Shown: in pieces, positions 1-17,915 of the stretch
Position numbering within the stretch: the first letter of the stretch is position 1
Layout of the letters: every line of letters begins with the position of its first letter
Origin: Candidatus Dojkabacteria bacterium
Lineage (GTDB): Bacteria; Patescibacteriota; Dojkabacteria; J137
Direction: 5' to 3'
Length of the DNA stretch: 64,000 nucleotides
Assembly (NCBI GenBank): GCA_025993875.1
Contig: JAMQHH010000005.1
Location: 8,183-72,182, forward strand
The notes under the pieces: model-generated
The model's database searches: none
The model's input: only the letters and a program-made list of their open reading frames with translations
What the model was told of the DNA's origin: nothing
Made by a program: the position numbers and the translations under genes

Positions 1-120
1 TCTTTTACACTATTGGCGTTGATAAACCATACATAAATTCATTAGTACCTACTTTTGGTTATTTGTTATCAACCATGACACTTGGCGTAATTAAAAATAT
101 TTGGATTAAAATACAAAGCG

Positions 121-327
121 ATGGAAGAAAATAAATTCTACACAATCGAACAGGTAGCTGAAATGTTACAAGTTGTTTATCTGACGGTTTATCGCTGGAT
201 TCAAGATGATAAATTAAAGGCCGTTAAGGCAGGTAAACAGTATCGAATTAGGCAATCTGACTTAGATAAGTTTTTAGAAGCAAAAGATAAGTCATTTGCA
301 AAGGGTGTTGAAAATGGAGGTAAGTAA
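121..327 (+). CDS. Excisionase/AlpA-family helix-turn-helix DNA-binding protein (putative recombination directionality factor)
   Basis: 68-aa ORF. The segment YTIEQVAEMLQVVYLTVYRWIQDDKLKAVKAGKQYRIRQSDLDKFL has the look of small excisionase-family HTH proteins. It is the first gene of a recombinase-bearing module. Confidence 0.55.
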   Translation: MEENKFYTIEQVAEMLQVVYLTVYRWIQDDKLKAVKAGKQYRIRQSDLDKFLEAKDKSFAKGVENGGK

Positions 328-418
328 AAGCCAAAAACCTTTACAGGGCTTATTTGTTTAGGAATCGTCCATTTGCAAGACGCCTTGAAAATGAGTAATA
401 GTTATTACAAATAAAATT

Positions 419-943
419 ATGATTCATATAGTAATGGGTATTTCTGGAAGTGGTAAGACAACTGCTTCGAAGTATCTTGCAGAAAAGTTAGATGCTGAAA
501 TAATAAATACTGATGTACTGCATTCGCTTTTATTCCCAAATGGTGAAAGAACCGAAACAGGTGATTTTACGCCAGAACAATTAGCAGAAATATATAGGTG
601 TTTAAGACCGCTTGCTTATTATCTGTCAAAGACAAGTCCTACAAAACATATAATCTTCGAAGGTAATTTTAGATTCAAATCACAGCGAGATTTTATTACC
701 GAAATGATGAAGGCAGAAAATTTATCTTACAAAATTTTGTTTATTCAAATAGGCAACGATGCAATAGCAGAAAAGCGCATTACTAATAGGCACTTGAATG
801 AAGGTGCTCCTGATACTTACGAAGATTATTTGAAAATAAAGCAGGTATATGAAAAGCCTGATGACGCCTATATTATCGATAATTCAGACGATGTTGGTTC
901 TTTTGAAACCAAATTAGATGACTATATAAAATCTATTTCTTAA
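419..943 (+). CDS. P-loop kinase-like protein (AAA_33 / zeta-toxin-like fold)
   Basis: Walker A GISGSGKTT near the N-terminus and a lid-like RITNRH segment; 174 aa. An EEP gene follows immediately. Confidence 0.55.
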   Translation: MIHIVMGISGSGKTTASKYLAEKLDAEIINTDVLHSLLFPNGERTETGDFTPEQLAEIYRCLRPLAYYLSKTSPTKHIIFEGNFRFKSQRDFITEMMKAENLSYKILFIQIGNDAIAEKRITNRHLNEGAPDTYEDYLKIKQVYEKPDDAYIIDNSDDVGSFETKLDDYIKSIS

Positions 944-953
944 TTACAGTGTT

Positions 954-1745
954 ATGAAACTTCTAAACATAAATGTGGGCATAAAGATTAACAATACTCT
1001 GGAAGTCGGCAATTACATTAAAGAGCAAAATGCAGATTTTGTTGCAATTCAGGAAATTGTCAGGCATCTTGAAGATAGTGTCTACGATGAATTTCGTTCA
1101 AAAGCAGGTGTTGAAGAAATATTAGGTAAGTTGTACCCACACAACTTTTTTGGAGCACTTTGGGTCACCGATGCTTTTAGAAAAGGTGGTAAAGTACATC
1201 GTGACTTTGGCGGACACATCGAACAGGGTAACCAGATTTTATCGAAATATGAAATTGTAGAAGGAACTAATGAGCATTACTATAAAACATATTCTTATGC
1301 CAAAGATTGGACTAATTGGCGTGATGAAGACCACGGCAGGGCTGTTCTAATAAGTGAGTTTAATGTTAGTGGGAAAAGGTTACAAATATTAAATCTTCAC
1401 GGAATCTGGACACACGATAAACAAGGCGATAATAGAACTATTGCCGAATGTGAATATGTTCTAAAAGCTGCAAAGCGTAAAGATATACCAACAATTATTA
1501 CAGGTGACTTCAATTTATTACCAGAAACAGAATCTATAAGGATACTCAATAAGGAGTTTACTAATCTTATTTCCGAATATGGAATAACTTCAACACGTCC
1601 GCATTTTGATGATGGAACTGACAAAGGCAACCAAGTTGTTGATTATATTTTTGTGAATAACGGAATTAAGGTAAACAGCTTTGAAGTACCTGAAACGGAT
1701 GTATCTGACCATTTGCCGTTAATTTTGGATTTTGACATTAAATAA
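954..1745 (+). CDS. Endonuclease/exonuclease/phosphatase (EEP) family protein
   Basis: N-terminal ...DFVAIQEI (catalytic Glu region) and C-terminal SDHLPLILDF (EEP signature His motif). Tightly linked to the kinase-like gene upstream. Confidence 0.7.
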   Translation: MKLLNINVGIKINNTLEVGNYIKEQNADFVAIQEIVRHLEDSVYDEFRSKAGVEEILGKLYPHNFFGALWVTDAFRKGGKVHRDFGGHIEQGNQILSKYEIVEGTNEHYYKTYSYAKDWTNWRDEDHGRAVLISEFNVSGKRLQILNLHGIWTHDKQGDNRTIAECEYVLKAAKRKDIPTIITGDFNLLPETESIRILNKEFTNLISEYGITSTRPHFDDGTDKGNQVVDYIFVNNGIKVNSFEVPETDVSDHLPLILDFDIK

Positions 1746-3323
1746 ATGAAAAAAGCCATAATACTTGCCCGTGTATCAACTCCTGAACAGGAAAAGACAG
1801 GATTATCACTGGAAGACATTCAGTTACCGCAAATGCGTGAATATGCCCTTGAAAAAGGGTTTGTTGTTGATAGCGAGTATGTATTTCAAGAAACCGCCAG
1901 CCAGAAACTTAGAAAAAAGTTTGATGAAATGGTTGACTATGTCAAAAAGAGTAAAGATATACGAGCGATAATCGCATTTAGGGTTGATAGAATGACCAGA
2001 AACTACCGTGATGCTGTCGAAATGGATAATTTACGGATTGAATATCACAAAGAACTTCATTTCGTGAACGACAGATTGATGTTAGATGAAAATAGTGTCG
2101 GTCGGGATATTCAAGATTGGGACTTAAAAGTGTTTTTAGCAAAACAACATATAAACCGTTGCCAAGAAGATGCCCATAATACTCTTCAATCAAAGTTAAA
2201 GTCAGGTGGTACTTACGGTCGAGCACCTTATGGATATAGAAATATCAGTAAAGAAGAAGAAAGAAATAATCTAAATCTACCTCGTGTAGTTGTCGAGCCG
2301 TTCGAAGCAGGAATTGTTAAGAAAGTTTTTGATTGGTATACAACAGGCTCAGATTCTTATTTATCCATTGCAAATCGACTACACAAAGATTATCCAACAC
2401 AATTTCCAGTGCTAAAAACAGCCAGACGGAAAGTCGAGAATATTATAAAGAACCCTTACTATCACGGCGAACGTGAATACAAAGGTAAAATCTATCCGCA
2501 CAGATTCGAAACCATAATTCCAAAAGAAGTATTTGAATTGGCAACGGAAAAAAGAACTGGTCGAGCAAGAGTAAAGGATAAACAAAAGAAAGTCACAAAA
2601 TCAATCTATGGCGGTCTTATAAGATGTTCAGAATGTGGATGTGCATTTAGTCCAAGCCCAAATAGACATACTCGTTTAGGGCGTGAAGTTGAAAGCGATA
2701 CTTATTACTATTGCACTAATTCAAAACGACAACACGAACAAAAGCCGCCTGGAACTAATGATAAAGAATTAACTGAACAATTTGCCAAACTATTCAAATC
2801 AATAAAGATTCCACAAAAAGACTTAGACAAACTAACCAAAACACTTCGTGACTCACACGAAGGCAAGAAAGCATTTACGATTGCGGAAACACAAGAATGT
2901 CGAACACAAATAGATAAACTACAAAGACGAATTGAAAATGCTTATGAAGATAAACTTGACGGCAGTATTACTACCGAACAATATAACAAATTCCGTGAAA
3001 ACTGGACTAAGCAAAAAGAAGAATATGAAGGCAAACTGGCAAGAATTAGTAAGGCAGATAAAGAGTACTATATTACGGCATCTTACTTACTGGAATTGGC
3101 ATCTCGGAGTTATGAATTATTCTTAGGTTCTGAACCTGAACAAAAAAGGCAGATTATCACATTAACACTTCAAAACCTTACTTTGAAAGATGGAAACCTT
3201 TGCTATGATTGGGTTAAACCCTTCGACAGTATCTTCGTTTCGGCTAAAAGTCACAAATGGGGTAGATTATGGCGAGAAATACGAACTGCTCTAATGGCTC
3301 ATTATATTGATTTAGCAATATAA
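1746..3323 (+). CDS. Large serine recombinase (integrase)
   Basis: N-terminal resolvase catalytic region AIILARVSTPEQ with Ser nucleophile, a recombinase domain, the Cys-rich zinc ribbon CSECGCAF...YYYCTN and a C-terminal coiled coil; 525 aa. Its last ~12 codons overlap a degenerate copy of the tRNA-His 3' end (3255-3286). Confidence 0.9.
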   Translation: MKKAIILARVSTPEQEKTGLSLEDIQLPQMREYALEKGFVVDSEYVFQETASQKLRKKFDEMVDYVKKSKDIRAIIAFRVDRMTRNYRDAVEMDNLRIEYHKELHFVNDRLMLDENSVGRDIQDWDLKVFLAKQHINRCQEDAHNTLQSKLKSGGTYGRAPYGYRNISKEEERNNLNLPRVVVEPFEAGIVKKVFDWYTTGSDSYLSIANRLHKDYPTQFPVLKTARRKVENIIKNPYYHGEREYKGKIYPHRFETIIPKEVFELATEKRTGRARVKDKQKKVTKSIYGGLIRCSECGCAFSPSPNRHTRLGREVESDTYYYCTNSKRQHEQKPPGTNDKELTEQFAKLFKSIKIPQKDLDKLTKTLRDSHEGKKAFTIAETQECRTQIDKLQRRIENAYEDKLDGSITTEQYNKFRENWTKQKEEYEGKLARISKADKEYYITASYLLELASRSYELFLGSEPEQKRQIITLTLQNLTLKDGNLCYDWVKPFDSIFVSAKSHKWGRLWREIRTALMAHYIDLAI

Positions 3324-3336
3324 TCTACTCCATAAA

Positions 3337-3786
3337 TCAATGGGTTAATTCTTTATCAGGCCAGGGATAAGGCATAAGTTCTGATATTGGAACTTGTTTT
3401 ATCTTACCTTCTTCTTCAATAATTATAACCGTGTCAATTTTGGACCTTATGCTACTTTCCCAGACTAGTTGTTTGCAGTTATGACAATTTGGTCCAGTCA
3501 TAGCTACTATCCGAGTTTCTCCATGCTGGGCTGCTCTTGCCAAAGCTACTGCCTCACTGTGCATAGTAGTATTGTGAGTATCAGACTTGTAAGAAGCACC
3601 TGTTATTACTGTACCTTTGTCTGTAAGAAGTGCAACTGCAAAGCCACTATTATTTTCAGGGAAAGTGAACTGTAGAGCCTTATCACCTTCATTCAATAAT
3701 AATTTGCAGGTTTCTTCATCTAGCTCATAAACCAAGAAACCATCATCTTTTTGCTTTGGTTCAGTTAATTTTATTTGTTGAAACAT
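3337..3786 (-). CDS. Cytidine/deoxycytidine deaminase-like protein (CDA fold)
   Basis: Zinc-binding motifs HSEAVA (the H/C-A-E motif) and PNCHNC (the PCxxC motif). Layout matches homotetrameric Cdd: FAVALLTDKGTVITGASYK...HSE...PNCHNCKQ. Confidence 0.7.
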   Translation of the reverse strand: MFQQIKLTEPKQKDDGFLVYELDEETCKLLLNEGDKALQFTFPENNSGFAVALLTDKGTVITGASYKSDTHNTTMHSEAVALARAAQHGETRIVAMTGPNCHNCKQLVWESSIRSKIDTVIIIEEEGKIKQVPISELMPYPWPDKELTH

Positions 3787-3859
3787 GGTTTTTGCAATAA
3801 AAGCTATATAAATTTTACTCTTTTTTCCACTTTACTTACGACCATTATACGACTATAAT

Positions 3860-4891
3860 ATGAATATGTTCAAGCCTAAATATACAATAACAAATACTCT
3901 TGCTACCAACATGCGTAAAGTTGGCGAAATTGTGGGAGAGCTTAATAGTAAAGTGCTTTCAAGCACTGTTCTAATGAATATGGAGCGAGATGCTAGAGCA
4001 TTATCTGCTCATTCTTCGACTCAAATTGAAGGTAACCCTTTACCTTTAACTGATGTGAAGAAAATCATTAAATCCAGACCTGAACATATTCGGGATACTG
4101 AACGAGAAGTCCTAAATTACAACAAAGCAATGTTGATGCTTGATGAGCAAATTAGAGCTGGGAAAGTTAGTAAATTATCTAATGAATTTATCTGCAAAAT
4201 CCAAAGTATAGTTATCGATGGTCTAATAAGTGAGTCATACAAGGGTAAATATCGAACAGAGCCAGTGTTTGTAAATGACCCAGTAAAAAGAGAGACTGTA
4301 TATTTACCACCTGATGCCAAAGATGTAGAAACTTTAATGACTGAGTTAGTTGAATTTATAAATGAAAATAAAGGCAAAATTGACCCTTTGATAATTGCAG
4401 GACTTTTTCATAAACAAGCAGTTGTGATTCACCCATTCATTGATGGAAATGGTAGAACTACGAGGTTAGTAACAAAAACCTTACTTGCCGAGCTTGGTAT
4501 CAATACTTTTCCATTATTTAGCTTTGAAAACTATTACAACAATAATGTAACTAGATATTTCCAAAATGTAGGGGTATTTGGAAATTACTACGATATTGTA
4601 GAAAGCATAGATTTTACCCAGTGGTTAGAGTACTTCACCGATGGAATTATTGATGAATTAAATAGGGTTAAATCGCAGTTTCCACAATATCAAGAGAGAC
4701 TTGAACCGCATCACAAACAAATTCTTGAATACATCAAAGAACATGGCTCAATTACAATGAGAGAGTATGAAGAAATTACAGACAGAGCAAAAGCAACAAG
4801 GATACAGGACTTTAAGAAGTTGGTAGATTTAGGGCTGATTGTGCCTGTAGGGGCTGGCAAGGCTACTTATTATATTTTGAAAAGCGAATAG
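3860..4891 (+). CDS. Fic family AMPylase, class II (intramolecular inhibitory helix) with C-terminal winged HTH
   Basis: Fic motif HPFIDGNGRTTR. The N-terminal inhibitory motif STQIEGN fits [ST]xxxE[GN]. The C-terminal ILEYIKEHGSITMREYEEITDRAKATRIQDFKKLVDLGLI is wHTH-like. Confidence 0.85.
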   Translation: MNMFKPKYTITNTLATNMRKVGEIVGELNSKVLSSTVLMNMERDARALSAHSSTQIEGNPLPLTDVKKIIKSRPEHIRDTEREVLNYNKAMLMLDEQIRAGKVSKLSNEFICKIQSIVIDGLISESYKGKYRTEPVFVNDPVKRETVYLPPDAKDVETLMTELVEFINENKGKIDPLIIAGLFHKQAVVIHPFIDGNGRTTRLVTKTLLAELGINTFPLFSFENYYNNNVTRYFQNVGVFGNYYDIVESIDFTQWLEYFTDGIIDELNRVKSQFPQYQERLEPHHKQILEYIKEHGSITMREYEEITDRAKATRIQDFKKLVDLGLIVPVGAGKATYYILKSE

Positions 4892-4916
4892 TTAAATATT
4901 TTTTACTTTTACATTT

Positions 4917-5639
4917 ATGAATGATGAAATAGAAGCAAAATTTAGAAAAGTGGATAAAGATGAAGTTCGAACAAAGTTGCAGCAAGCGGGAGCTAGTCTG
5001 TTAAAACCTGAATTTTTGCAAAAAAGAGTTGTATTCAATCTACCCACCCTAGAATCGAATCTCCCTGAAATGCCAATAATAGAAACTATTGATGGTTCTG
5101 ACTTTGTAGTTTTTGAAAACGACAAAAAAGTTAAGGTCAGCAATGGAGCTAATGCCCAACAAATAATCGAAACAATATTTTCGACCGATATTAGGGCAAG
5201 AGCTAACAAGGGTTGGCTTCGAGTTAGAGACGAGGCAACTAGGATTACAATGACCTACAAAAGACAGGATAGTTCTTTGATTGATGGAATGAGAGAAATT
5301 GAAGTTACTGTAGATGATTTTAACTTAGCTTTTGAATTATTGACCTATCTAGGATGTAAATATAAAGCATATCAAGAAACTAGACGAGAGTTATGGGAGC
5401 TTAATGGTGTGGAAGTCACTATTGATGAGTGGCCTTATTTAGAACCTTTTGTCGAGGTTGAAGGACATTCAGAAGGAGAAGTTAAAGAAGTGTCTAATAC
5501 GCTTGGTTTTGAGTGGGAAACTGCTCACTTTGGTGCAGTTGATACTTTATATTCTGAGAAATATGGCGTTACAGAAAAGCACATAAACGAAGAGACACCT
5601 GAGATTCTATTTGATAAACCAAATCCTTTCACTAAATAA
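4917..5639 (+). CDS. CYTH / triphosphate tunnel metalloenzyme domain protein (CyaB/ThTPase-like)
   Basis: N-terminal EIEAKF (ExExK signature), then LRVRDE, TYKRQ, REIEVTVDD and ELWELNGVEVTIDEWPYLEPFVEVEG, the acidic tunnel residues typical of CYTH. It has a ~50-aa insertion after strand 2. Confidence 0.65.
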   Translation: MNDEIEAKFRKVDKDEVRTKLQQAGASLLKPEFLQKRVVFNLPTLESNLPEMPIIETIDGSDFVVFENDKKVKVSNGANAQQIIETIFSTDIRARANKGWLRVRDEATRITMTYKRQDSSLIDGMREIEVTVDDFNLAFELLTYLGCKYKAYQETRRELWELNGVEVTIDEWPYLEPFVEVEGHSEGEVKEVSNTLGFEWETAHFGAVDTLYSEKYGVTEKHINEETPEILFDKPNPFTK

Positions 5640-5760
5640 TTTAATTTTTATTCTATGAACACTAAAATGAACACCACAAACGAATACTATGATAATATTA
5701 TGGTTTATTCCAGACCGTCTAAACACTCACTTTGAAAATTAAATTATTAACTAAAAAATT

Positions 5761-6798
5761 ATGAGCAAAATACGCTACCAAAATGAGAAGATGAAGCGAA
5801 AGTATTTCGATTGGGCAAAGGGAGCTTTGGGTTACTCAGATAAAACCATGAAGGTTAAAGAAGCAGCTTTGTGGAAGTACGATGAATATACAAAGAATCA
5901 GGATTACAAAAAATTTAATGCTGACTCAGCAAAGGGTTTTAAGAAATGGCTTGAAGTAACTAAGAATAAAAATACTGGTAATACACTAGATAAGACTACC
6001 CAATACAGCGTATTGCGACATGTGAACCATTTCTTTAATTGGCTATCTATGCAGTCAGGCTACAAGTCGAAAGTAACGATGGATGATGTAGCTTATTTAA
6101 GACTAAGCAAAGCAGATACCAAGATTGCAACTAGTTCTAAAATGCCAAAGTATCCAAGTCTAGCTTACATTCAGAAAATGTGTAGTTTCCCTATTGAAAA
6201 TGAGATTGACCAACGAGACAGAGCCTTAATTGCTTTTACAGCTTTATCAGGGATGCGAGATTTAGCGATTATTAGTTTACCTATTGGCTGCTTTGCTCCT
6301 GAGAAATTACTTATTGAACAAGACCCAGCACAAGGTGTAAAAACAAAGTTCTCCAAAACCATATATACAACGCTTTTTAAGTTTGATGATACCCTTCTAA
6401 ATTATATTTTGGAGTGGCATCAATTTTTAAGAAAAGAGAAACTATTTGATAATAGTAACCCACTATTCCCAGCAACTAAGATTGAACTAGCGAGTGAAAC
6501 TCAACATTCATTTATTGCAGCAGGTGTAGATAAAGTTTACTGGGCTGACACTAATCCAATGCGAAAGATGTTTCGAGCAAGAGCCGAACAGATGGGTTTG
6601 GAATACTACTCACCTCACAAGTTCAGGCATTTTGCGATTAGTGAAGCTAACAAGTATGCAATTGGGGCAGAGCAAATGAAAGCAATTAGCCAGAATGTTG
6701 GGCATGAGAGGTTAACAACAACTTTTTATGGATATGGAGCAGTTGATAACTACCGAGTCTCTGACATTATTTCAAGTATGGAGTTTAAGGGTAAGTAA
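5761..6798 (+). CDS. Tyrosine recombinase / phage-type integrase
   Basis: C-terminal catalytic signature ...RALIAFTALSGMR..., HKFRHFAIS and GHERLTTTFYGY, i.e. the R...HxxR...Y pattern; 345 aa. Confidence 0.8.
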   Translation: MSKIRYQNEKMKRKYFDWAKGALGYSDKTMKVKEAALWKYDEYTKNQDYKKFNADSAKGFKKWLEVTKNKNTGNTLDKTTQYSVLRHVNHFFNWLSMQSGYKSKVTMDDVAYLRLSKADTKIATSSKMPKYPSLAYIQKMCSFPIENEIDQRDRALIAFTALSGMRDLAIISLPIGCFAPEKLLIEQDPAQGVKTKFSKTIYTTLFKFDDTLLNYILEWHQFLRKEKLFDNSNPLFPATKIELASETQHSFIAAGVDKVYWADTNPMRKMFRARAEQMGLEYYSPHKFRHFAISEANKYAIGAEQMKAISQNVGHERLTTTFYGYGAVDNYRVSDIISSMEFKGK

Positions 6799-6851
6799 AA
6801 TTGTCGTTTATTGTAAAAGGGATATAAAGTAAAATATTTTTAACTATAAGT

Positions 6852-8555
6852 ATGAGTAAATTTATTAAAGAACACAATTTTGCCAAGAACCGCTACTTTC
6901 TCTATGCCAGAAAGTCTAGTGAATCGGAAGACCGCCAAGTCGCTTCAATATCAGCACAAGTAGAAGTAATGACTGACGTTGCAAAAGAGCTTGGTTTGAA
7001 AATTGTCGATACTCTTAGTGAGTCTTCATCAGGATTCCATGTAGGCAGAAAAGTGTTTAATGAAATGCTGGAAAGAATAGCTAATGGTGAAGCGGATGGA
7101 ATTATTGTTTGGAAACTTTCCCGTTTGTCTCGTAACCCTGATGACGCTGGCAAAATAATGGGTATGCTTCAAAGAAAAGAAGTTAAACATATTCGTACAA
7201 TTGATAGAAACTGGCTTCCAGAAGACAATGTAATGATGATGTATGTCGAGTTTGGAGTAACCAATCAATTCAGTAGGGATTTGAGTGATGACACCACTAG
7301 AGGTTTAATCAAGAAAGCAGAAAGAGGTTGGAATCCAAAGGCTTCATTGCCACTCGGCTATATGCACTCACCCTTCAAAAAAGTTGGTGACCAAGAAATA
7401 ATGCCCGACCCAGAACGATTCGAGATAATCTCAAAAGCACTAAGAAAAGTTGCTACTGGTGAAATGCGCCCACTAATTGCTTTGAATTATGCAAATAATC
7501 TTGGTTTAAGGACTAAGAAAGGTGAGGAAGTGTCTGAAAGTGTATTCTACAGAATGCTTTCCAATCCTTTTTATTGCGGAAAATTTGAATATCCAGAAGC
7601 TAGTAGTAATTGGTATGACGGTAAGCATGAAAAAGCAATTTCAGAAGAAGAATTTGAACTAATACAAAAATACAGAGGACATAAAGATAGACCAAGACCT
7701 CAAAAGCACTTATTCCCGTATACAGGAATGATGAAATGTGGTGAATGTGGATGTTCAATTGTTGTAGACCCGAAAGTGAAGGTTCAGAAGAATGGTAATG
7801 TACACAAATATTTTTATTACCGTTGCACAAAATCCAAAGGTAATTGCAGTCAGAAGTACTTAGAAGTAACCCAACTAGAAAAGCAACTAGCTGAAATGCT
7901 TGAATCCATTGAAATACCTGATTCTTTCCATCAATGGGCATTAGATGAACTAGAGCTTGATGTTCAGAAAGACATTTCAGATAGAAATGAAATTATTGAG
8001 GCTGCGCAGAAAGGCTATGATGAAGCCCTAGAACAGATTCATAATTTGGTGAAGGGATATTCAAGTGGCAAAATTCCAGAAGAGGCTTACGATTCTAACC
8101 TTGCAGAATTTAATAAATCAAAAGCGAAATACAAAAAGATTTTAGACAATACCGACGAACGCATAGCAGAATGGACAGAACAAGCTAAAAAATCGTTCAA
8201 ATTTGCTCATGAAGCTAAACAGAAGTTTGAGGATGGAGATTTGACAGTTAAGAACGATATTTTTCTAAATTTAGGAGCCAATATTGTAATTAAAGATTTA
8301 CATCTTTCAGTTGATATAGATAAACCTTTGTTAATAATCAAGAAAGCAAAGTCAAAATTTGAGAAATTGGAGTCAACCTTCTCACCTGTCAATACCCTGA
8401 ACGGTGGGGAAAATATTGAGATTTTATCGTCTAAAAAAATCATGATGGGTGATCTGTTAGACATATTCAGAACAAAATTCCCACACTTTAATATTAGCTT
8501 GGAACAGTTTAAAATCTTCTTTCAAAACTTCGGGATTCAGCCTTTAGTTATTTAA
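6852..8555 (+). CDS. Large serine recombinase (second copy, distinct C-terminus)
   Basis: YFLYARKSSESEDRQVASISAQ (Ser nucleophile region), a recombinase domain, the zinc ribbon CGECGCSIVVDP...YYRCTKSKGNCS and a coiled-coil tail; 567 aa. Confidence 0.9.
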   Translation: MSKFIKEHNFAKNRYFLYARKSSESEDRQVASISAQVEVMTDVAKELGLKIVDTLSESSSGFHVGRKVFNEMLERIANGEADGIIVWKLSRLSRNPDDAGKIMGMLQRKEVKHIRTIDRNWLPEDNVMMMYVEFGVTNQFSRDLSDDTTRGLIKKAERGWNPKASLPLGYMHSPFKKVGDQEIMPDPERFEIISKALRKVATGEMRPLIALNYANNLGLRTKKGEEVSESVFYRMLSNPFYCGKFEYPEASSNWYDGKHEKAISEEEFELIQKYRGHKDRPRPQKHLFPYTGMMKCGECGCSIVVDPKVKVQKNGNVHKYFYYRCTKSKGNCSQKYLEVTQLEKQLAEMLESIEIPDSFHQWALDELELDVQKDISDRNEIIEAAQKGYDEALEQIHNLVKGYSSGKIPEEAYDSNLAEFNKSKAKYKKILDNTDERIAEWTEQAKKSFKFAHEAKQKFEDGDLTVKNDIFLNLGANIVIKDLHLSVDIDKPLLIIKKAKSKFEKLESTFSPVNTLNGGENIEILSSKKIMMGDLLDIFRTKFPHFNISLEQFKIFFQNFGIQPLVI

Positions 8556-9157
8556 AAACAGCTCCATTCAGTCATATTACTTGAATATCCGATAATGACT
8601 GGTATGGTTTCTGGTACTAAATCAGGATTCATTGCATAAACAGTAAGTCTTAAATGTCCTTCTAAAACTACTAATTTTTTGCCATCGCTTACCAATATTA
8701 GCTTATTAAACTTTTTACCTTTTTTAAAATCTTCACTTGCATTTAAGAATCCTTCATTACTCACTTCAAATACAGTTTTTCCTTCTTTAATTGACTTAAC
8801 AGCATCTTTTGGTAATCTACTCCCACTAGTTAATTCAGTCCAATAATCATAATCTATATAGAAAACTTGATTAAGTAATTCTTCTTTAGTTATATCAACT
8901 TCATGCCATTCGATATTGGTAGGAAAACCTTCAAATAATCCTACGTTATTATCGTAATCCCTGTATATATTAAAAAGTTTTTTCCTTGTTTGATTTTCTT
9001 CTTCATTTTTAAGGTCCGCATTAGTAATGATTTCAGTATTTGCATTTAACTTATTCAAACCTTCGGTTAGCTTATTCTTGAATCTACTGGAATCTAATTC
9101 TGCCTTTAAGAACTCTAAAATCATTATATTTTCAGTTATCTTCTTTCTGTTGTTCAT
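8552..9157 (-). CDS. Hypothetical protein (201 aa, no recognisable motif)
   Basis: Clean ORF divergent from the THUMP methyltransferase. Lys/Asp-rich and non-repetitive. No catalytic motif recognised. Confidence 0.4.
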   Translation of the reverse strand: MNNRKKITENIMILEFLKAELDSSRFKNKLTEGLNKLNANTEIITNADLKNEEENQTRKKLFNIYRDYDNNVGLFEGFPTNIEWHEVDITKEELLNQVFYIDYDYWTELTSGSRLPKDAVKSIKEGKTVFEVSNEGFLNASEDFKKGKKFNKLILVSDGKKLVVLEGHLRLTVYAMNPDLVPETIPVIIGYSSNMTEWSCF

Positions 9158-9180
9158 AGTTTTTTATATAATTCAGCTAT

Positions 9181-10212
9181 ATGAAGTATATTGCATTTGT
9201 AACAAAAGGTATAGAAGCTATTTGTGCTAAAGAACTTTCTTTGATTGAAGGGCTTACTGTTATATCTATACAGTCTAAACAGTCTAAATATGTAAGGTTT
9301 GAATATACTGATAATCCCTTAAATCTAAGCCAACTTAAAACTATTGATGATGTAGCCTTACTACTTGGTGATTTTTCATTGCAGGATATAATGGATTTAA
9401 AAATTGAGCTAAATGTTGTTCAACAGGATTTCATCCCCTTTATTTCCAAATTTAGAAGCATTTCAAATAATTTCTCGGTTACTTTAAGCAATTACAAATC
9501 CAATATTAACAAAGAAGAATTAAAACTTAGTTTACAGAAATACTTTTCTAACAGATTGAATTTATCTTATTCTGAATTGGACCATTCAAACTTAGACTTT
9601 AGAATAAACATAGAAGAAGACACTGCTTTCATTTCTTTAAAACTTTTCCCCGAAAGTCTTTATAAAAGAAGCTATAACCACACAACTACTTTAGGCAGTA
9701 TACGTTCAACTATTGCTTCAGCAATCATCTTAGAAATACTTAATAAATTAAATAAAAAGCCCAATTGTTTAAGTTTAGTTGATAACTTCTGTGGAAGTGG
9801 TACTTTTCTTTGCGAAGCTAGTTTAATGGGATTTAACGTATTTGGAGGTGATATAAAACCATCTAGTGTTACACTAACTAAGAAAAACTTAGTGAAAGCT
9901 GGTTTAAAGAATGTAGAAATTAAATTGCAAAATGCAGAACAAACAAAGTGGCAAAATAATTATTTTGATATTGCTGTTAGCAATTTCCCTTGGAACAAAC
10001 AAATTAGTGAAAGTAATTTATCAAAACTTTATGATAAATCTATTAAAGAATATGCTCGAATACTCAAAAAAGATAGTTCCTTTGGATTTATAGGAATGAA
10101 ACCTGATTTAATAAAGAAGTATATTAAAATCTACTTCCCAAATTATGAAGTTGAGGAATTTAAAATTGGATATTTAGGTCAGAATCCGACGATTTTAATT
10201 TGTTATTTATAA
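9181..10212 (+). CDS. THUMP-domain class I SAM-dependent RNA (m2G-type) methyltransferase, Trm14/RlmL-like
   Basis: PESLYKRSYNHTTTLGSIRSTIASAIILEIL...LVDNFCGSGTFLCEA matches the 'RGYR...DPFCGSGT' block of THUMP methylases. Motif IV reads NFPW instead of the canonical NPPY/F. Confidence 0.7.
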   Translation: MKYIAFVTKGIEAICAKELSLIEGLTVISIQSKQSKYVRFEYTDNPLNLSQLKTIDDVALLLGDFSLQDIMDLKIELNVVQQDFIPFISKFRSISNNFSVTLSNYKSNINKEELKLSLQKYFSNRLNLSYSELDHSNLDFRINIEEDTAFISLKLFPESLYKRSYNHTTTLGSIRSTIASAIILEILNKLNKKPNCLSLVDNFCGSGTFLCEASLMGFNVFGGDIKPSSVTLTKKNLVKAGLKNVEIKLQNAEQTKWQNNYFDIAVSNFPWNKQISESNLSKLYDKSIKEYARILKKDSSFGFIGMKPDLIKKYIKIYFPNYEVEEFKIGYLGQNPTILICYL

Positions 10213-10233
10213 TTGTAGAAATACAAAATTGTG

Positions 10234-10674
10234 TTATTTAGACGATTCTAACGCTCTGTACTTTGAATCATCAAAGTCTTTATATTTGAGCTTAAGTACT
10301 TTATCTACAATTAAATACAAATCATCTAGATACTTTTGCTTCTTGATTGCCAAAGCAGTTAAAAATAAAAGTTTTTCTAAAGAAATTATTTTATAGTCCT
10401 TCATTTCTATTGCACCATCTGAAAGGTAATCATAGTCAAATTGACAAATTGTTTTCCAAATCTCAAATTCATAAACTACAATTCCAAAATCTCCCCACAA
10501 ATCTTTTAGATTACTTGGATACATTTTAGATAAGGCTTCGTAATCTTCAGTCGAAACTATTAAGTCAGTGTCCTCACCAGATTTTCTAATTTCATAATAT
10601 TCTTTTGCTTTGCCTCCTACTAGTAAAGGCTTATTTTTGAAGCTGTAGTTTAGTTTTGATAAGTCAATATTCAT
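10234..10674 (-). CDS. Putative minimal nucleotidyltransferase (MNT/pol-beta fold)-like protein
   Basis: N-terminal LLVGGKAKEYYEIRKSGEDTDLIV fits the hG[GS]xA[KR]...[ST]DxDLxV NTase signature; 146 aa. Last gene of a three-gene minus-strand cluster. Confidence 0.35.
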   Translation of the reverse strand: MNIDLSKLNYSFKNKPLLVGGKAKEYYEIRKSGEDTDLIVSTEDYEALSKMYPSNLKDLWGDFGIVVYEFEIWKTICQFDYDYLSDGAIEMKDYKIISLEKLLFLTALAIKKQKYLDDLYLIVDKVLKLKYKDFDDSKYRALESSK

Positions 10675-10677
10675 AGA

Positions 10678-11157
10678 TTAGTTATTTAATATTTCAACTT
10701 TAAAATCTTTTATATCTTTAGACTTTAATGCATCCCTAAGCTTTTGTACTATCTTAAATACAAGTTCTTTGGGAGCAAGATTTTCATCGTTAAGAAACCG
10801 TATTGTTCCTTTGCCAATAAAACCTTCGTCCGTAAAAGTGTGTCCTTCAAAAACTCTTTCTGATAAATATCTAGGTTGTAAATGTATATGAATCCTTTTA
10901 ACGTTATTCCCTTGCTGACAGTAGTTAAACCAGTCAGGATTGAAACACTCTTTTAGTAAATCCTCAGCAATTTGTCCAATTTTCTTAAAGTCTAACATCT
11001 CCTTGTCAGTTAGATGTACCATTGAACCTTCAAATGCTCTTGGAGGAAATATTATTAGCCAACCTAAGACATGTTGGTTTCCTCCAACTCCTAATGTCCA
11101 GTCATCAAATTTAGCAATATGAAGTTTTGACCATTCTTCTTTAGGTATTATCGACAT
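10678..11157 (-). CDS. HIT (histidine triad) family nucleotide hydrolase/transferase, FHIT/Hint-like
   Basis: NQHVLGWLIIFPPRAFEGSMVHLTDKEM...GNNVKRIHIHLQPRY parallels FHIT GHVLVCPLRPVERFHDL...GQTVKHVHVHVLPRK. The triad is reduced to R-x-H-x-H. Confidence 0.65.
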   Translation of the reverse strand: MSIIPKEEWSKLHIAKFDDWTLGVGGNQHVLGWLIIFPPRAFEGSMVHLTDKEMLDFKKIGQIAEDLLKECFNPDWFNYCQQGNNVKRIHIHLQPRYLSERVFEGHTFTDEGFIGKGTIRFLNDENLAPKELVFKIVQKLRDALKSKDIKDFKVEILNN

Positions 11158-11164
11158 AAATTTT

Positions 11165-11590
11165 CTACTCTAAAAGTTTAAAAAGTTTCTTAATAAATTC
11201 AGATACATCCGAGCTGCTTCGATATATTTCTTTGGCTTTAGCAATGAAATCTTGATGGTCTGGATAACCACTATCTCCTTCAGTGCCTAAAATTTGAGTA
11301 AATTCTTGAGAAGAAAGTACAACACTGTTGAATACTTCTGCAACATCCCACCATAAACCATTATTAGTATCTAAATTTTTTGTTATTTCGGGAAATTTGT
11401 CTGCAGAATATCCATAAAATATAAAGTGCATTAGTTCGTGGCTTGTTACTCTTATGCTCGAATCACATTGATAAAATATTTGGAAAGTTTTATCTTCTAA
11501 AAACCTGGGATTGCAGTTAAAAGAAGATATGTAACCTATATACTTACCTTCAGGAAATTTACAGCAATTAAAGAGTATTACGAAGGATTT
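11165..11590 (-). pseudogene. ImmA/IrrE-like HExxH metallopeptidase, 5'-truncated
   Basis: The annotated ORF starts MHFIF. The frame stays open upstream (...IFYQCDSSIRVTSHELMHFIFY...) to a stop at ~11591-11593, giving HELMH plus a downstream E..A..F..L segment typical of DUF955/ImmA peptidases. The extension has no ATG and abuts the recombinase remnant. Confidence 0.5.
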
Positions 11591-11867
11591 TTATGAAGCA
11601 AAGTGGAAAGAATACAACGCAAGACAAAGTGAAATTACTGACCAATTATCTAAGCTAACCAAATCGGATGAATCTTATTATATTACGATGGGTTATGTCT
11701 TTCAGCTTGCTCATAGTGCTTATGATTTATTTTTGTGTTCTGAAATGGAAGAAAGAAGGCAAATTATCAATTTAGTATTTCAGAACGTCAAGATGAATGG
11801 TGAAAAACTAGAATACACAATGGATGAGGCCTTTGAATTACTACGAAATTTAGACGATTGTACTATA
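11556..11867 (+). pseudogene. Serine recombinase C-terminal remnant fused to the tRNA-His 3' end (att junction)
   Basis: Translation DFYEAKWKEYNARQSEITDQLSKLTKSDESYYITMGYVFQLAHSAYDLFLCSEMEERRQIINLVFQNVKMNGEKLEYTMDEAFELL aligns with residues ~400-500 of the 1746..3323 recombinase (QYNKFRENWTKQKEEYEGKLARISKADKEYYITASYLLELASRSYELFLGSEPEQKRQIITLTLQNL...). There is no N-terminal catalytic domain, and the frame runs directly into the tRNA. Confidence 0.7.
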
Positions 11868-11944
11868 TGGGGTGGTTGGCGGGGCTCGAACCCGCGACAA
11901 CCGCTTCCACAGAGCGGCGCTCTACCAACTGAGCTACAACCACC
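11868..11944 (-). tRNA. tRNA-His (anticodon GTG), with G-1 and genomically encoded CCA
   Basis: Hand-folded cloverleaf on the minus strand: G-1, acceptor GTGGTTG/CAACCAC, D-stem GCTC/GAGC, anticodon stem CCGCT/AGCGG with loop CTGTGGA, T-arm GCGGG-TTCGAGC-CCCGC, discriminator C, then CCA. Confidence 0.85.
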
Positions 11945-12042
11945 AACACAATATCAACGTCTTGTAACAATTCTACCTAATCATTAAATTTATGTTAAAT
12001 TATAGCATTAACAGCAGCTCGTAGGCATGTTAGTATACAAAA

Positions 12043-12615
12043 GTGGACAATATTCTAAAATTAAAATATATCTACGCATCTTCTTTTATATTTTGGCTGG
12101 CATCAAATCTTGTAAGCCCGTTTTTGGTTTTATTTGCTCTTACATATATAAATGGAATCAGCGCGCTCGAAATCGGCATTGCGTCTATGTGCTTTTTTCT
12201 ATCGTTCGGTGTAAGTGTAATTTTATTTGCTACAATTGCCGATAAAATTAAAGGTGTTAAAGACGATTTCCTTATTATTTTTTGCGGTTTTATATTTAGG
12301 GGTGTTATTTTTATCTTTATCAGTGTAGTAAATAGTATATGGGGGTTTTATGTTATTCACATACTTTTAGGTCTGAGTCGAGGTCTTACGGATTCTTCGC
12401 AGGAAAAAATTATTTCTAAAATATCATCTGAGGATTTTTTGGGAAGAACATTTGGCTTAAAAATAGGACTTGTAAATATAGCTGCAGCTGCCGGCGCAGC
12501 TTTGGGTGGTATCTTTATTGATCAATATGGCTTTAATTATGTGTTTATTGCTGTCGGCATTTTAACAATAATTGCCGGATTTCTTTTTTACTATAATCGA
12601 AAGGTTATAATATAA
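12043..12615 (+). CDS. Six-TM MFS-like membrane protein (possibly a truncated half of an MFS transporter)
   Basis: Six hydrophobic helices. The TM2-TM3 loop ADKIKGVKDD resembles the MFS D-R-x-G-R-[KR] loop. At 190 aa it is about half the length of a typical 12-TM MFS transporter. Confidence 0.45.
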   Translation: MDNILKLKYIYASSFIFWLASNLVSPFLVLFALTYINGISALEIGIASMCFFLSFGVSVILFATIADKIKGVKDDFLIIFCGFIFRGVIFIFISVVNSIWGFYVIHILLGLSRGLTDSSQEKIISKISSEDFLGRTFGLKIGLVNIAAAAGAALGGIFIDQYGFNYVFIAVGILTIIAGFLFYYNRKVII

Positions 12616-12623
12616 ATAATTTT

Positions 12624-13049
12624 TTAATTGCGGCTTTTTCCGCTAAACTTAATAATTGATACCAGCAGCCCAAAACTCGAAATTATTGGGGGAACGATTA
12701 TTAAAAATCTAAAGATTTTATCCCATGTTTCTTTATTACCAAAAACCTCGGTGCTAAAGGGAAACACAACCCAAAATATGTACGCCAACACAATAAAAAA
12801 TATGTTTTCTATTACGTCGGTAAATAACTTATAGACTTCGGTTTTTATAAAATATCTAAGAAAATTAAGTAAAATGCCAATAACCAGTACAGCATTGTAA
12901 AAAGGCTTTATACTGTCAAAATTATCCGATAAAAACGTAATTTTATAGTACAAAAGATTAAAAAGTATTAAAAATCCCGTAAAGAAGAATAATCCTATGG
13001 TATTTTCGATTAAATCTCCTACTCTATTCTTTTTCATACTAAAAACCAT
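12624..13049 (-). CDS. Small polytopic membrane protein, unknown function
   Basis: 141 aa with four hydrophobic segments. Overlaps the start of the pseudouridine synthase gene by ~10 nt. Confidence 0.4.
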   Translation of the reverse strand: MVFSMKKNRVGDLIENTIGLFFFTGFLILFNLLYYKITFLSDNFDSIKPFYNAVLVIGILLNFLRYFIKTEVYKLFTDVIENIFFIVLAYIFWVVFPFSTEVFGNKETWDKIFRFLIIVPPIISSFGLLVSIIKFSGKSRN

Positions 13050-17032: not shown

Positions 17033-17915
17033 TTTGTAAAATACTATGAACATGTTACAAATTTAATAAGCGATTAAAAGTTATAGCTGATAAGCAAAAT
17101 AGGAATGATGCTGAAATGACTGATCTCTTTCTAAATTTGTTGAAATCTATAGCTGAATAACTTTTTAACCATGCCACCACTTTTTCAATTAATCCTCTAG
17201 TGTATTTATGCTCATGTGTAAACTTAAATCGTGGTCCTAATTTTCTGTTATTGCTACAATTCTTCATCTCCATTCTTACCTGGCAATTTTGTTTTTTTAA
17301 TTCTTGTCTTCTTTGGTACCTCTCATATCCTTTATCCAAGAAAAGCTCATAAGGTAATTTTTTAATACCAATAAGCATTTTATCAAGTATCTCTGAATCT
17401 GGAGCGCTACCAACATCTACAGAGTAATATATCGGAACACAGTCTTCAGTTATTGCTATTGTTATCTTTATACAGTAATTATGATATTTTCCGGAATACG
17501 TTACTAAATTACATGTTCTGTACGATACCCGATCACTTGAATCTATTATTACTTTTCCTAATCTTCTTATTGTTAAGTTGGAAGTTATGAATTTGTGAAA
17601 TTTTTTTAATAATCCTCTTCTTTGAATTTCGTAAAGATATCTTCTACAAGTTGTTTGATGCTTAATTCCCCTCCATCCACAACTTGTTTTAAAAAGCCTT
17701 TGTAATTCAATTAGCATAACAATAGCACTTATTGGTTTGGGTCCTCTTTTCCCAGGTTTTCTTTCTGGTAGGAATTTACATAGATGCGCAAGAAACTTCT
17801 TTGTGTTATTATTCATTGGATGAGTATTTAATAGTTTGACACTATATTATGCCCATCCATTCATAACTTTTCAAGTTTTATTGAAATTTGTAACATCTTC
17901 TATGTAATTACTTAG
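17033..17915 (-). mobile_element. IS5-family insertion sequence (approximate ends)
   Basis: The single transposase ORF is flanked by imperfect terminal inverted repeats sharing the core ATGTTACAAATTT. The left is ...ctatgaacATGTTACAAATTTaataa at ~17045-17075. The right, as reverse complement, is ...catagaagATGTTACAAATTTcaataa at ~17880-17912. Confidence 0.6.
17055..17816 (-). CDS. IS5-family (IS427/IS1031-like) DDE transposase
   Basis: N-terminal KRGPKPISAIVMLIELQRLFKTSCGWRGI matches the 'RGRPR...ILYVLRTGCQWRxLP' block of IS5-group transposases; 253 aa. Confidence 0.7.
   Translation of the reverse strand: MNNNTKKFLAHLCKFLPERKPGKRGPKPISAIVMLIELQRLFKTSCGWRGIKHQTTCRRYLYEIQRRGLLKKFHKFITSNLTIRRLGKVIIDSSDRVSYRTCNLVTYSGKYHNYCIKITIAITEDCVPIYYSVDVGSAPDSEILDKMLIGIKKLPYELFLDKGYERYQRRQELKKQNCQVRMEMKNCSNNRKLGPRFKFTHEHKYTRGLIEKVVAWLKSYSAIDFNKFRKRSVISASFLFCLSAITFNRLLNL

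Follow-up and report, generated by a model that had tools for sequence, protein, structure and literature searches.

A deaminase, a SoFic-type Fic protein and a CYTH protein in a recombinase-rich island of a Dojkabacteria genome are probably independent genes

We analysed a window of 64,000 nucleotides from a Candidatus Dojkabacteria bacterium (contig JAMQHH010000005.1, positions 8,183 to 72,182), in which genes for a deaminase, a Fic protein and a CYTH protein sit in a recombinase-rich island of this CPR host genome (Table 1). The open reading frames and motifs of all three were verified, and the identifications proposed in an earlier sequence-only reading of this DNA, namely a minus-strand deaminase with HSE...PNCHNC, a Fic protein with its own inhibitory STQIEGN motif and a CYTH protein with EIEAKF and an insertion of ~50 aa, held throughout. 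That reading had also placed the trio directly after a recombinase, and indeed the deaminase stop codon lies 13 nt beyond the end of the large serine recombinase 1 gene. The deaminase and Fic genes are transcribed divergently across an intergenic region of 73 nt; Fic and CYTH lie on the same strand with a gap of 25 nt and are probably, judging from this layout, read as one transcript. By exact-protein look-ups, the trio was present in 23 of the 23 contigs of the host population and is fixed there.

Table 1. Features of the island, in coordinates of the window.
Feature	Coordinates	Strand	Basis
525-aa large serine recombinase 1, at the right-hand end of the upstream element	1746..3323	+	Pfam Resolvase, Recombinase, Zn_ribbon_recom
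attP-like junction, TGGGGT core and 65-nt arm	3258..3324		Homology to L074
CDA-fold zinc deaminase, paralogue "deamB", CPR/DPANN-restricted family, 149 aa	3337..3786	-	Pfam PF00383, homologues, fold search
Promoter-like site TTTACT-17-TATAAT (3831-3859)	3828..3859	+	Promoter scan; left edge of conserved Fic cassette
Predicted SoFic-type Fic AMPylase of class II, putative C-terminal HTH, 343 aa	3860..4891	+	Pfam, PADLOC, motifs
CYTH/triphosphate-tunnel protein, 240 aa, divergent within its ~192-aa CPR family	4917..5639	+	Pfam, fold search
48-aa CYTH insertion (about aa 45-92), lineage-specific, predicted three strands and a helix	5049..5192	+	Alignment, model
Tyrosine recombinase, 345 aa	5761..6798	+	Pfam Phage_integrase E 1.7e-5, below cutoff; NCBIfam XerA/XerC-like
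Large serine recombinase 2, 567 aa	6852..8555	+	Pfam Resolvase 1.9e-20, Recombinase, Zn_ribbon_recom
Recombinase-1-type gene, 3' fragment only, reads into tRNA-His, attR-like	11688..11867	+	phmmer E 3e-15 to recombinase 1
tRNA-His (GTG), probable integration target	11868..11943	-	ARAGORN; Rfam tRNA 69 bits

The deaminase matched Pfam dCMP_cyt_deam_1 (PF00383; E 8e-7, 29.3 bits for a cutoff of 25), and 25 family members all share its motifs H76-S-E78 and P99-N-C101-H-N-C104. The family counts 114 homologues at 50-89% identity with an invariant MHSE...GPNCHxCKQ signature and a mean column identity of 63%, and among the homologues found it is confined to CPR and DPANN-type MAGs. A second copy with 86% amino-acid identity is encoded 7.1 kb upstream, outside the window. 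The nearest PDB sequence match was B. subtilis Cdd (1ux1, E 3e-11), and the AlphaFold model (pLDDT 91) matched tetrameric cytidine and blasticidin-S deaminases at TM 0.6-0.7, the best Foldseek matches being CDAs (E 1e-7, TM 0.70). The window deaminase equals B. subtilis Cdd (PDB 1JTK/1UX1) and blasticidin-S deaminase (PDB 2Z3G) in fold and size, with H76, E78, C101 and C104 corresponding to the zinc ligands and catalytic Glu of Cdd. Yet these best matches in sequence and structure share ~20-26% identity with it, its signature is GPNCHxCKQ where the Cdd type has PCGxCRQ, and it falls below all NCBIfam cdd equivalog cutoffs (TIGR01354, 31.0 versus 113.65 bits; NF005314, 29.9 versus 131; NF004064, 21.5 versus 74). 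In the 1ux1 profile alignment, GCNIENAAY faces GASYKSDTA in the deaminase, so that Asn42 and Glu44 of B. subtilis Cdd, which we take to be ribose-binding residues, would be replaced by Ser and by Lys or a variable residue inside a family-specific SYxSDT motif. Because these residues differ from canonical Cdd, the substrate assignment is uncertain; a pyrimidine-salvage or detoxifying enzyme is most likely. No PADLOC defence family matched the deaminase at E <= 0.01. The window deaminase is one of two paralogues from a branch of the cytidine/blasticidin-S deaminase fold that is conserved in CPR/DPANN.

The Fic protein matched Pfam Fic at E 1e-17, and 6532 homologues were found. Its core motif HPFIDGNGRTTR (H191PFIDGNGRTTR202) fits HxFx(D/E)GNGRxxR, and 23 relatives all share H191, F193, D195, N197, G198, R199 and R202. 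Since the inhibitory motif S53TQIEGN59, of which S53, I56, E57, G58 and N59 are invariant in aligned relatives, stands N-terminal to the core in the same chain, the protein falls into class II. With a start at the ATG at 3866, Fic would have 341 aa. The C-terminal HTH scored below the Pfam threshold (HVO_A0114, 21.2 bits versus 27.6; HTH_DeoR, E 6e-3); this region is spanned by the PADLOC SoFic profile (aa 10-339) and by the alignment to PDB 7xux (to aa 329). The match to PADLOC SoFic (PDLC03963; E 9.6e-50, 168 bits, profile positions 25-350 of 361) is to a broad model, the tested SoFic proteins being only weakly similar to the window Fic (3eqx, E 2e-10; 9vjc, E 3e-6; core region only), and the score against the NCBIfam SoFic equivalog NF046030 was far under its cutoff (63.5 versus 550 bits). 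The protein also matched phrog_5978 (E 7.6e-52). SoFic, a known single-gene defence type, is listed as a single-gene anti-phage system by Millman et al. (2022), as cited in PMC12249575, and by its match to the PADLOC model the window Fic is predicted to be a defence-type gene.

SoFic of Shewanella oneidensis (SO_4266, PDB 3EQX/3ZCN) is a class II Fic AMPylase with an E. coli homologue, EcSofic (PDB 9VJC). The window Fic has in common with it the N-terminal inhibitory (S/T)xxxE(G/N) helix, the HxFx(D/E)GNGRxxR core and, putatively, a C-terminal domain of DNA-binding type, and resembles it further in its near-full-length profile match, single-gene travel and variable neighbours. It differs in belonging to a CPR bacterium and in having CYTH downstream in place of the small AS1-like gene of some SoFic loci. 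By analogy with SoFic, it would be a self-contained class II AMPylase kept inactive by the N-terminal inhibitory Glu57 and, once released, might AMPylate cellular targets so that phage infection is aborted or growth arrested.

The promoter-like site in front of Fic, within the 73-nt intergenic region, came from a promoter/terminator scan that overall gave no enrichment relative to shuffled sequence. Four metagenomic Fic loci whose flanks are unrelated share nucleotide homology with the window from 3828-3836 onwards, and the homologous stretch runs from this site to within 10 nt past the Fic stop codon. Fic relatives at 90% (L073) and 85% (L074) identity have wholly different neighbours. Fic, as these comparisons have it, apparently travels with its own promoter-like site as a self-contained cassette.

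The CYTH protein matched Pfam CYTH (E 9e-15, 55.3 bits versus a cutoff of 23.2) and scored under the cyaB equivalog cutoff (TIGR00318, 46.2 versus 57.95 bits). It has more than 1241 homologues and is divergent within its family, with a mean identity of 56.6% to the other members versus 63.5% within the family, whose mean column identity is 52%. In the N-terminal ExExK motif, E4-I-E6-A-K8, neither E4 nor E6 varies among 120 relatives, 112 of which have Thr in place of Lys8; the alignment shows all catalytic residues retained. The model (pLDDT 92.4) matched 2dc4, 1yem and 7nsa with a Foldseek probability of 1.0, and also 2fjt. Compared with archaeal TTMs (PH1012, 2DC4; Pfu, 1YEM; Sulfolobus SaTTM, 7NS8-7NSF) and with a class IV adenylate cyclase (Yersinia, 2FJT), at TM 0.75-0.78 normalised to target, the window protein shares ExExK and conserves the acidic and basic tunnel residues; it departs from them in its 48-aa insertion, in a Lys8 unlike the Thr of most of its relatives and in its sub-cutoff cyaB score. 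It is a divergent copy of the CPR triphosphate-tunnel enzyme and most likely a triphosphatase. There was no PADLOC match for CYTH, and a literature search on CYTH in anti-phage systems returned nothing directly relevant.

The insertion is missing from 120 of the 120 best CYTH homologues among the more than 1241, and its prediction as a folded unit is confident (pLDDT about 93). A search with the insertion by itself against 1.84 billion representatives yielded two matches and no credible homologue; the better one (P0355) was discarded as a chance resemblance to a repetitive ORF. According to the model, CYTH carries an orphan 48-aa insertion at its surface.

Homology of the 3' recombinase fragment to recombinase 1 stops at a TGGGGT core at 11868. 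The same core is common to three junctions: at 3258, between recombinase 1 and the 65-nt arm; at 11868, between the fragment and tRNA-His; and in L074, where an arm 80% identical to that of the window (L074 5761-5825) has unrelated DNA before it and element genes after it. These correspond to attP-like, attR-like and attL-like configurations, an assignment drawn from the three sequences only. Strain-variable contig starts coincide with the left junction, about 1.75 kb ahead of the first position of the window. Among the contigs found by exact-protein look-ups with CYTH and the flanking pseudouridine synthase, the arrangement was uniform, with no island-free allele, empty site or excised form, and direct and inverted repeat searches (1-13000) and self-BLAST of the extended locus yielded no att repeats, only the deaminase duplication. 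The 65-nt arm was also considered as a decayed tRNA copy and dropped, having no Rfam tRNA match and aligning poorly with tRNA-His beyond ACCCCA. Likewise, the island methyltransferase proved not to be orthologous to a core UPF0020 gene that a relative carries between rplU and rpmA.

The junctions suggest two serine-recombinase elements integrated in tandem at the tRNA-His 3' end, of which the older, decayed one (about 3264-11867) would hold the trio. It is because of these TGGGGT-core junctions that island cargo is a plausible description of the three genes, and they lend support to the earlier placement of the trio on a mobile element. Like tRNA-targeting elements of large serine recombinases, the island has a recombinase gene abutting a putative junction and a short candidate core at the tRNA 3' end, and its HTH_17 excisionase-like gene, tandem layout and internal attP-like junction recall tandem accretion islands. 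Unlike in such elements, most of the recombinase gene is gone from the inner element, which carries two other recombinases, a tyrosine and a serine one. A literature search on Saccharibacteria serine-recombinase elements returned nothing directly relevant.

We compared the neighbours of the three families at other loci. At 80 metagenomic loci of Fic relatives (55-90% identity, 719 kb of flank), 66 of them informative upstream, with 600 nt or more, and 60 informative downstream, with 800 nt or more, neither the deaminase nor CYTH was found. Among 62 deaminase genome loci, 3 had Fic, 3 had CYTH within 10 kb and 5 had a serine recombinase, and all three genes occurred together at none of them, nor at 7 further deaminase loci or 4 CYTH loci. 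Altogether, about 160 other loci were examined and none had the full trio, which was seen in one strain-level population only. Deaminase relatives were mostly in non-mobile settings (near rplU/rpmA, rpsO/ftsA, tgt, Peptidase_S51 or NUDIX) and CYTH relatives were placed among core genes. Viral-contig scans for the three families gave 0, 0 and 1 matches, with none enriched. Unannotated genes of ~340 aa beside two CYTH relatives were considered as cryptic Fic genes and ruled out, as they are not Fic. Each of the three proteins is a member of a large or well-conserved CPR family with freely varying neighbours.

The sequence-only reading had taken the three genes for an unclassified conflict module, that is, a cooperating anti-phage or toxin-antitoxin system carried by a mobile element, and had stated that a deaminase conserved at non-mobile loci, with freely varying Fic and CYTH neighbours, would speak against it. 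This is what we found, and the module is therefore unsupported by its own preset test. The tight clustering within a recombinase island, the match of Fic to a defence-family model and the probable co-transcription of Fic and CYTH are in its favour; with a combination limited to one strain-level population, two families that are conserved and usually near core genes, and no enrichment on viral contigs, we hold it to be extremely improbable. The link to defence that had been drawn for all three is backed for Fic by the PADLOC SoFic match; the deaminase and CYTH have no PADLOC match. The other possibility raised at the time was ordinary nucleoside-salvage cargo. Taken as nucleoside or nucleotide salvage, with the deaminase and CYTH adding to a CPR episymbiont's reduced metabolism and Fic as incidental, it fits with the wide spread of both enzyme families among CPR genomes, where they often lie near housekeeping genes, and with NUDIX and Peptidase_S51 among the recurrent deaminase neighbours. 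It agrees poorly with a deaminase that fails the cdd equivalog cutoffs (31 versus 114 bits) and seems to lack the canonical ribose-binding Asn/Glu. We know of no established salvage role for CYTH, and the two genes are not near each other beyond chance, CYTH lying within 10 kb of the deaminase at 3 of the 62 loci where about 1 was expected by estimate. Salvage would apply to the deaminase at best and does not extend to Fic, and as an account of the trio it is quite improbable.

Pairwise partnerships have to be weighed as well. In the closest sequenced relative (L012), a divergent deaminase-Fic pair is kept between SDR dehydrogenase, NUDIX and VOC genes, with 81% nucleotide identity to window positions 3351-4890, intergenic region included, and 89% amino-acid identity in Fic; that locus has no recombinase and no CYTH. 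The divergent layout is repeated in a distant MAG (L069, deaminase 39% identical), and an Aenigmatarchaeota MAG (L024) has a convergent pair. Deaminase flanks totalling 879 kb contained 3 Fic genes, each of which directly adjoins the deaminase, with crude placement odds of about 0.01 for two independent cases. Deaminase and Fic could then be a true two-gene unit, one partner modulating or being the target of the other, or both drawing on a common nucleotide pool, with CYTH as a later passenger. We judge this unlikely: Fic is adjacent at only 3 of about 69 deaminase loci and the deaminase at 0 of the 66 informative Fic loci, the L073 Fic has no deaminase within 9.6 kb upstream, the L024 Fic differs in architecture (312 aa, HMM match in the core only, no C-terminal HTH recognisable by eye), and the other deaminase paralogue partners with Peptidase_S51 instead of Fic. 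A recurrent functional pair captured by the island, to which CYTH was added and in which Fic would AMPylate or be regulated via the deaminase, or both would manipulate the pyrimidine pool during infection, is distinctly unlikely. As for Fic and CYTH, their spacing and probable co-transcription could reflect coupling in this lineage, with CYTH modulating a Fic toxin via ATP/triphosphate or through binding by the inserted mini-domain. A downstream antitoxin gene was reported for E. coli Sofic (PMC12249575), and CYTH occupies the AS1 antitoxin position of some SoFic loci; a conserved 71-aa ORF lies directly downstream of Fic in 5 of the 80 Fic relatives, and the CYTH insertion is unique and, in the model, confidently folded. 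Yet CYTH was downstream at 0 of the 60 informative Fic loci, its catalytic residues are intact as in the housekeeping family, and since the homology of the Fic cassette ends within 10 nt of the stop codon, CYTH arrived separately from Fic. A lineage-specific toxin-regulator pair is very improbable.

Because relatives elsewhere almost never share neighbours, the trio is best seen as an ordinary juxtaposition, and because the arrangement does not recur, its co-location above chance is not established. We consider it probable that the three genes function independently and that island turnover assembled them, the trio lying in the older decayed element. The deaminase would then act in pyrimidine salvage or detoxification independently of Fic, and CYTH would act as a triphosphatase independently of both.

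The result is mainly a clean negative, indicating that nucleotide-acting enzymes beside recombinases need not form one system. Neighbourhood recurrence settles the question of system or no system quickly; as a discovery, the outcome carries small weight. Genetic tools for the host lineage are scarce. Three side products may be of use: a defined branch of the cytidine-deaminase fold, strongly conserved in CPR/DPANN, whose substrate pocket is predicted to be altered; a candidate att core (TGGGGT, at the tRNA-His 3' end) for a family of small serine-recombinase elements in the host lineage; and evidence that SoFic-type Fic genes may move as promoter-plus-gene cassettes in CPR bacteria.

The genes of the deaminase, Fic and CYTH proteins were annotated accurately in the sequence-only reading, with all three ORFs in place, the Pfam matches obtained, the HSE...PNCHNC motifs of the deaminase and the motifs of Fic and CYTH present, and Fic belonging to class II. 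The same reading proposed that the trio forms a three-gene conflict module and gave its recurrence elsewhere as the test; the three genes were not found together elsewhere. Among 62 genome loci of the deaminase (879 kb), Fic was present in 3, CYTH within 10 kb in 3 and a serine recombinase in 5, and none of the 62 had the deaminase, Fic and CYTH together. Seven further deaminase loci obtained by look-ups contained no Fic, CYTH or serine recombinase gene, their neighbours being rplU/rpmA, rpsO/ftsA, polyprenyl synthase, an acetyltransferase and similar genes. Deaminase and CYTH were both absent from 80 metagenomic Fic loci (55-90% identity, 719 kb of flank), which extended at least 600 nt upstream in 66 cases and at least 800 nt downstream in 60. 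The closest CYTH relatives adjoin RuvX/YceG, malic enzyme and UvrA/B/C, and viral contigs gave 0, 0 and 1 relatives for the three families. The identical CYTH protein occurs on 23 assembled contigs, among which gene order does not vary; since all matches at 100% identity represent one population, they carry no information on conservation. These results show that the three genes are not conserved as a unit, and the module hypothesis is not supported.

Features of the trio, its surroundings and the rest of the window
Feature	Position	Strand	Description
Fic	3860-4891		343 aa; Pfam Fic, E 1e-17
Deaminase	3337-3786	-	149 aa; Pfam dCMP_cyt_deam_1 above threshold, E 8e-7
CYTH	4917-5639		240 aa; Pfam CYTH, E 9e-15; starts E-I-E-A-K
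Second deaminase paralogue	L003:824-1273 (retrieved contig)		~4.2 kb before window position 1; also L011:10001-10441
UPF0020/RlmKL-type methyltransferase	9181-10212	+	partial PADLOC mad2 match, E 1.6e-20, methyltransferase domain only
3' fragment of recombinase 1-like gene	11688-11867		directly before tRNA-His core
DDE transposase gene	17055-17816	-	ORF list and Pfam
2009-aa ORF	26402-32431	+	ORF list

A smaller linkage, of the deaminase and Fic as a two-gene pair, is a minor alternative. All three Fic genes in the 879 kb of deaminase flanks are immediate neighbours of the deaminase: at L012, the locus in the closest sequenced relative; at L069, where the layout is divergent as in the window and the deaminase 39% identical; and at L024, an archaeal MAG in which the two genes are convergent and the Fic architecture is different. 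At L012, a related uncultured Candidatus Saccharibacteria MAG, the source of the deaminase's closest genomic relatives, keeps the divergent pair and its intergenic region at 81% nucleotide identity (window 3351-4890), with a Fic of 89% amino acid identity. Its locus lacks both recombinase and CYTH, the pair being flanked by short-chain dehydrogenases, a NUDIX hydrolase and glyoxalase-type genes, and homology is lost 12 nt short of the deaminase 3' end on one side and at the stop codon of Fic on the other. Fic loci at 90%, 85%, 83% and 75% identity, for their part, have only window 3828/3836 to 4881/4900 in common, a span running from a promoter-like site (TTTACT-17-TATAAT) to just beyond the stop codon between unrelated flanks. 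Fic is separable from the deaminase, and the conserved span looks like a single-gene cassette.

Fic carries the core motif H191PFIDGNGRTTR202 and, on its N-terminal side, the inhibitory motif S53TQIEGN59, which places it in class II. Its C-terminal helix-turn-helix scores below Pfam thresholds, and this region falls within the nearly full-length PADLOC SoFic profile match (E 9.6e-50) and within an alignment with PDB 7xux. Relatives at E <= 1e-10 number 6532, many of them CPR proteins at 55-90% identity, and the family alignment has a mean column identity of 71%. The tested SoFic proteins are distant (3eqx, E 2e-10; 9vjc, E 3e-6), and the window protein falls far under the NCBIfam SoFic equivalog cutoff. 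In E. coli, Sofic is followed by a small antitoxin gene, AS1 (PMC12249575). A conserved ORF of ~71 aa directly 3' of Fic on the same strand, found in 5 of the 80 loci (e.g. L109:11037-11252), resembles this arrangement.

The deaminase, with motifs H76-S-E78 and P99-N-C101-H-N-C104, is a CDA-fold enzyme. Its AlphaFold model (pLDDT 91) superposes on cytidine and blasticidin-S deaminases, and the family profile best matches the tetrameric cytidine deaminase of B. subtilis (E 3e-11). In the profile alignment, the ribose-binding positions Asn42 and Glu44 of the B. subtilis enzyme are replaced by Ser and Lys; the protein is below every NCBIfam cdd equivalog cutoff (31 bits vs 114) and has no match in PADLOC. 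The family is small (114 clusters) and markedly conserved (50-89% identity), has members across CPR bacteria and in a few DPANN-type archaeal MAGs, and keeps the stretches SYxSDT...TMHSE...GPNCHxCKQ...PIS.LMPYPWP invariant or nearly so. A second copy, 86% identical in amino acids, is located 7.1 kb upstream, a little beyond the window edge, adjoining Peptidase_S51 and an aldo-keto reductase, and its locus is syntenic in the related MAG (88% nucleotide identity). Two paralogues are retained in both species, and the partner genes of one are not those of the other.

CYTH has more than 1241 relatives, nearly all of ~192 aa and from CPR genomes. It retains all invariant tunnel residues and is rather divergent (56.6% identity to the family vs 63.5% within it), with Lys8 at a position occupied by Thr in 112 of 120 relatives. 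After 'NLP' it carries a 48-aa insertion (window 5049-5192) that occurs in none of the 120 best relatives and, searched alone, had no credible homologue among 1.84 billion representatives. The model (pLDDT 92.4) matches archaeal TTMs and class IV adenylate cyclase, and the insertion is predicted with high confidence as three strands and a helix. Its pLDDT is ~93 from an alignment where no other sequence carries it, which is unusual for a lineage-specific insert.

As for the mobile-element context, the deaminase stop codon lies 13 nt from the end (3323) of recombinase 1, a large serine recombinase. A TGGGGT core (3258-3263) lies within the last 22 codons of that gene, followed by a 65-nt arm to 3324. 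The arm recurs at 80% identity in the metagenomic Fic locus L074 (5761-5825), with unrelated DNA before it and element genes including an HTH_17 protein after it, an arrangement resembling attL. The core is also the 3' end of tRNA-His (11868, antisense strand), which together with the preceding recombinase fragment resembles attR (11688-11873). From these two layouts we infer that recombinase 1, core and arm are attP-like, as expected between two elements integrated in tandem. Since the recombinase ORF spans the core, its C-terminal tail differs with the flank and at tRNA-His reads into the antisense tRNA. In other samples, three contigs begin at a point ~1.75 kb ahead of window position 1 and 14 nt ahead of a TGGGGT; on the upstream side of this point they differ from the L003 strain. 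L001:1-60 is also among the sites sharing this core. Three independent metagenome contigs end exactly at 11766 and another begins at 11798, within the recombinase fragment, suggesting that strains are heterogeneous or that the assembly branches there. With tandem integration, the trio would open the older, decayed element (~3264-11867), in which several small unknown genes accompany a tyrosine recombinase, a second large serine recombinase and a methyltransferase. Calling the trio island cargo is reasonable given the att-like junctions, although the analysis yielded neither an excision product nor an empty site; looking up the flanking pseudouridine synthase turned up no allele that lacks the island.

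Window 121-3323 is a compact element backbone in the order HTH_17 excisionase-like gene, AAA_33 kinase (weak Zeta_toxin and polynucleotide-kinase matches), EEP nuclease/phosphatase and recombinase, the EEP stop codon abutting the start of recombinase 1. At L055, an EEP homologue is convergent with a deaminase-family gene beside tgt, without a recombinase. The island methyltransferase is not orthologous to the UPF0020 gene lying between rplU and rpmA in a relative. Two adjacent small ORFs (10234-11157, minus strand) had no significant Pfam match: one of 146 aa resembles by eye a minimal nucleotidyltransferase (GG...DTD), and in the other, of 159 aa, the motif HIHLQP is like a histidine triad (Pfam HIT, E 0.065).

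The three genes are new members of known families, and their juxtaposition is an ordinary one. Judging from comparative genomics, the three proteins would act independently of one another; family membership suggests their activities and the defence role. Fic would be an autoinhibited SoFic-type AMPylase, probably a stand-alone abortive-infection or growth-arrest gene, and CYTH a triphosphate-tunnel hydrolase carrying a lineage-specific surface module. The deaminase, from a CPR-specific branch, would serve in salvage or detoxification. Its family's commonest neighbour, a ~326-aa protein, matches an HhH-GPD glycosylase weakly (E 1e-3; 10 of 62 loci, e.g. L049:10352-11332), and Peptidase_S51, SDR and NUDIX genes are also among the most frequent; the 326-aa protein, Peptidase_S51 and NUDIX may hint at the deaminase's true pathway.
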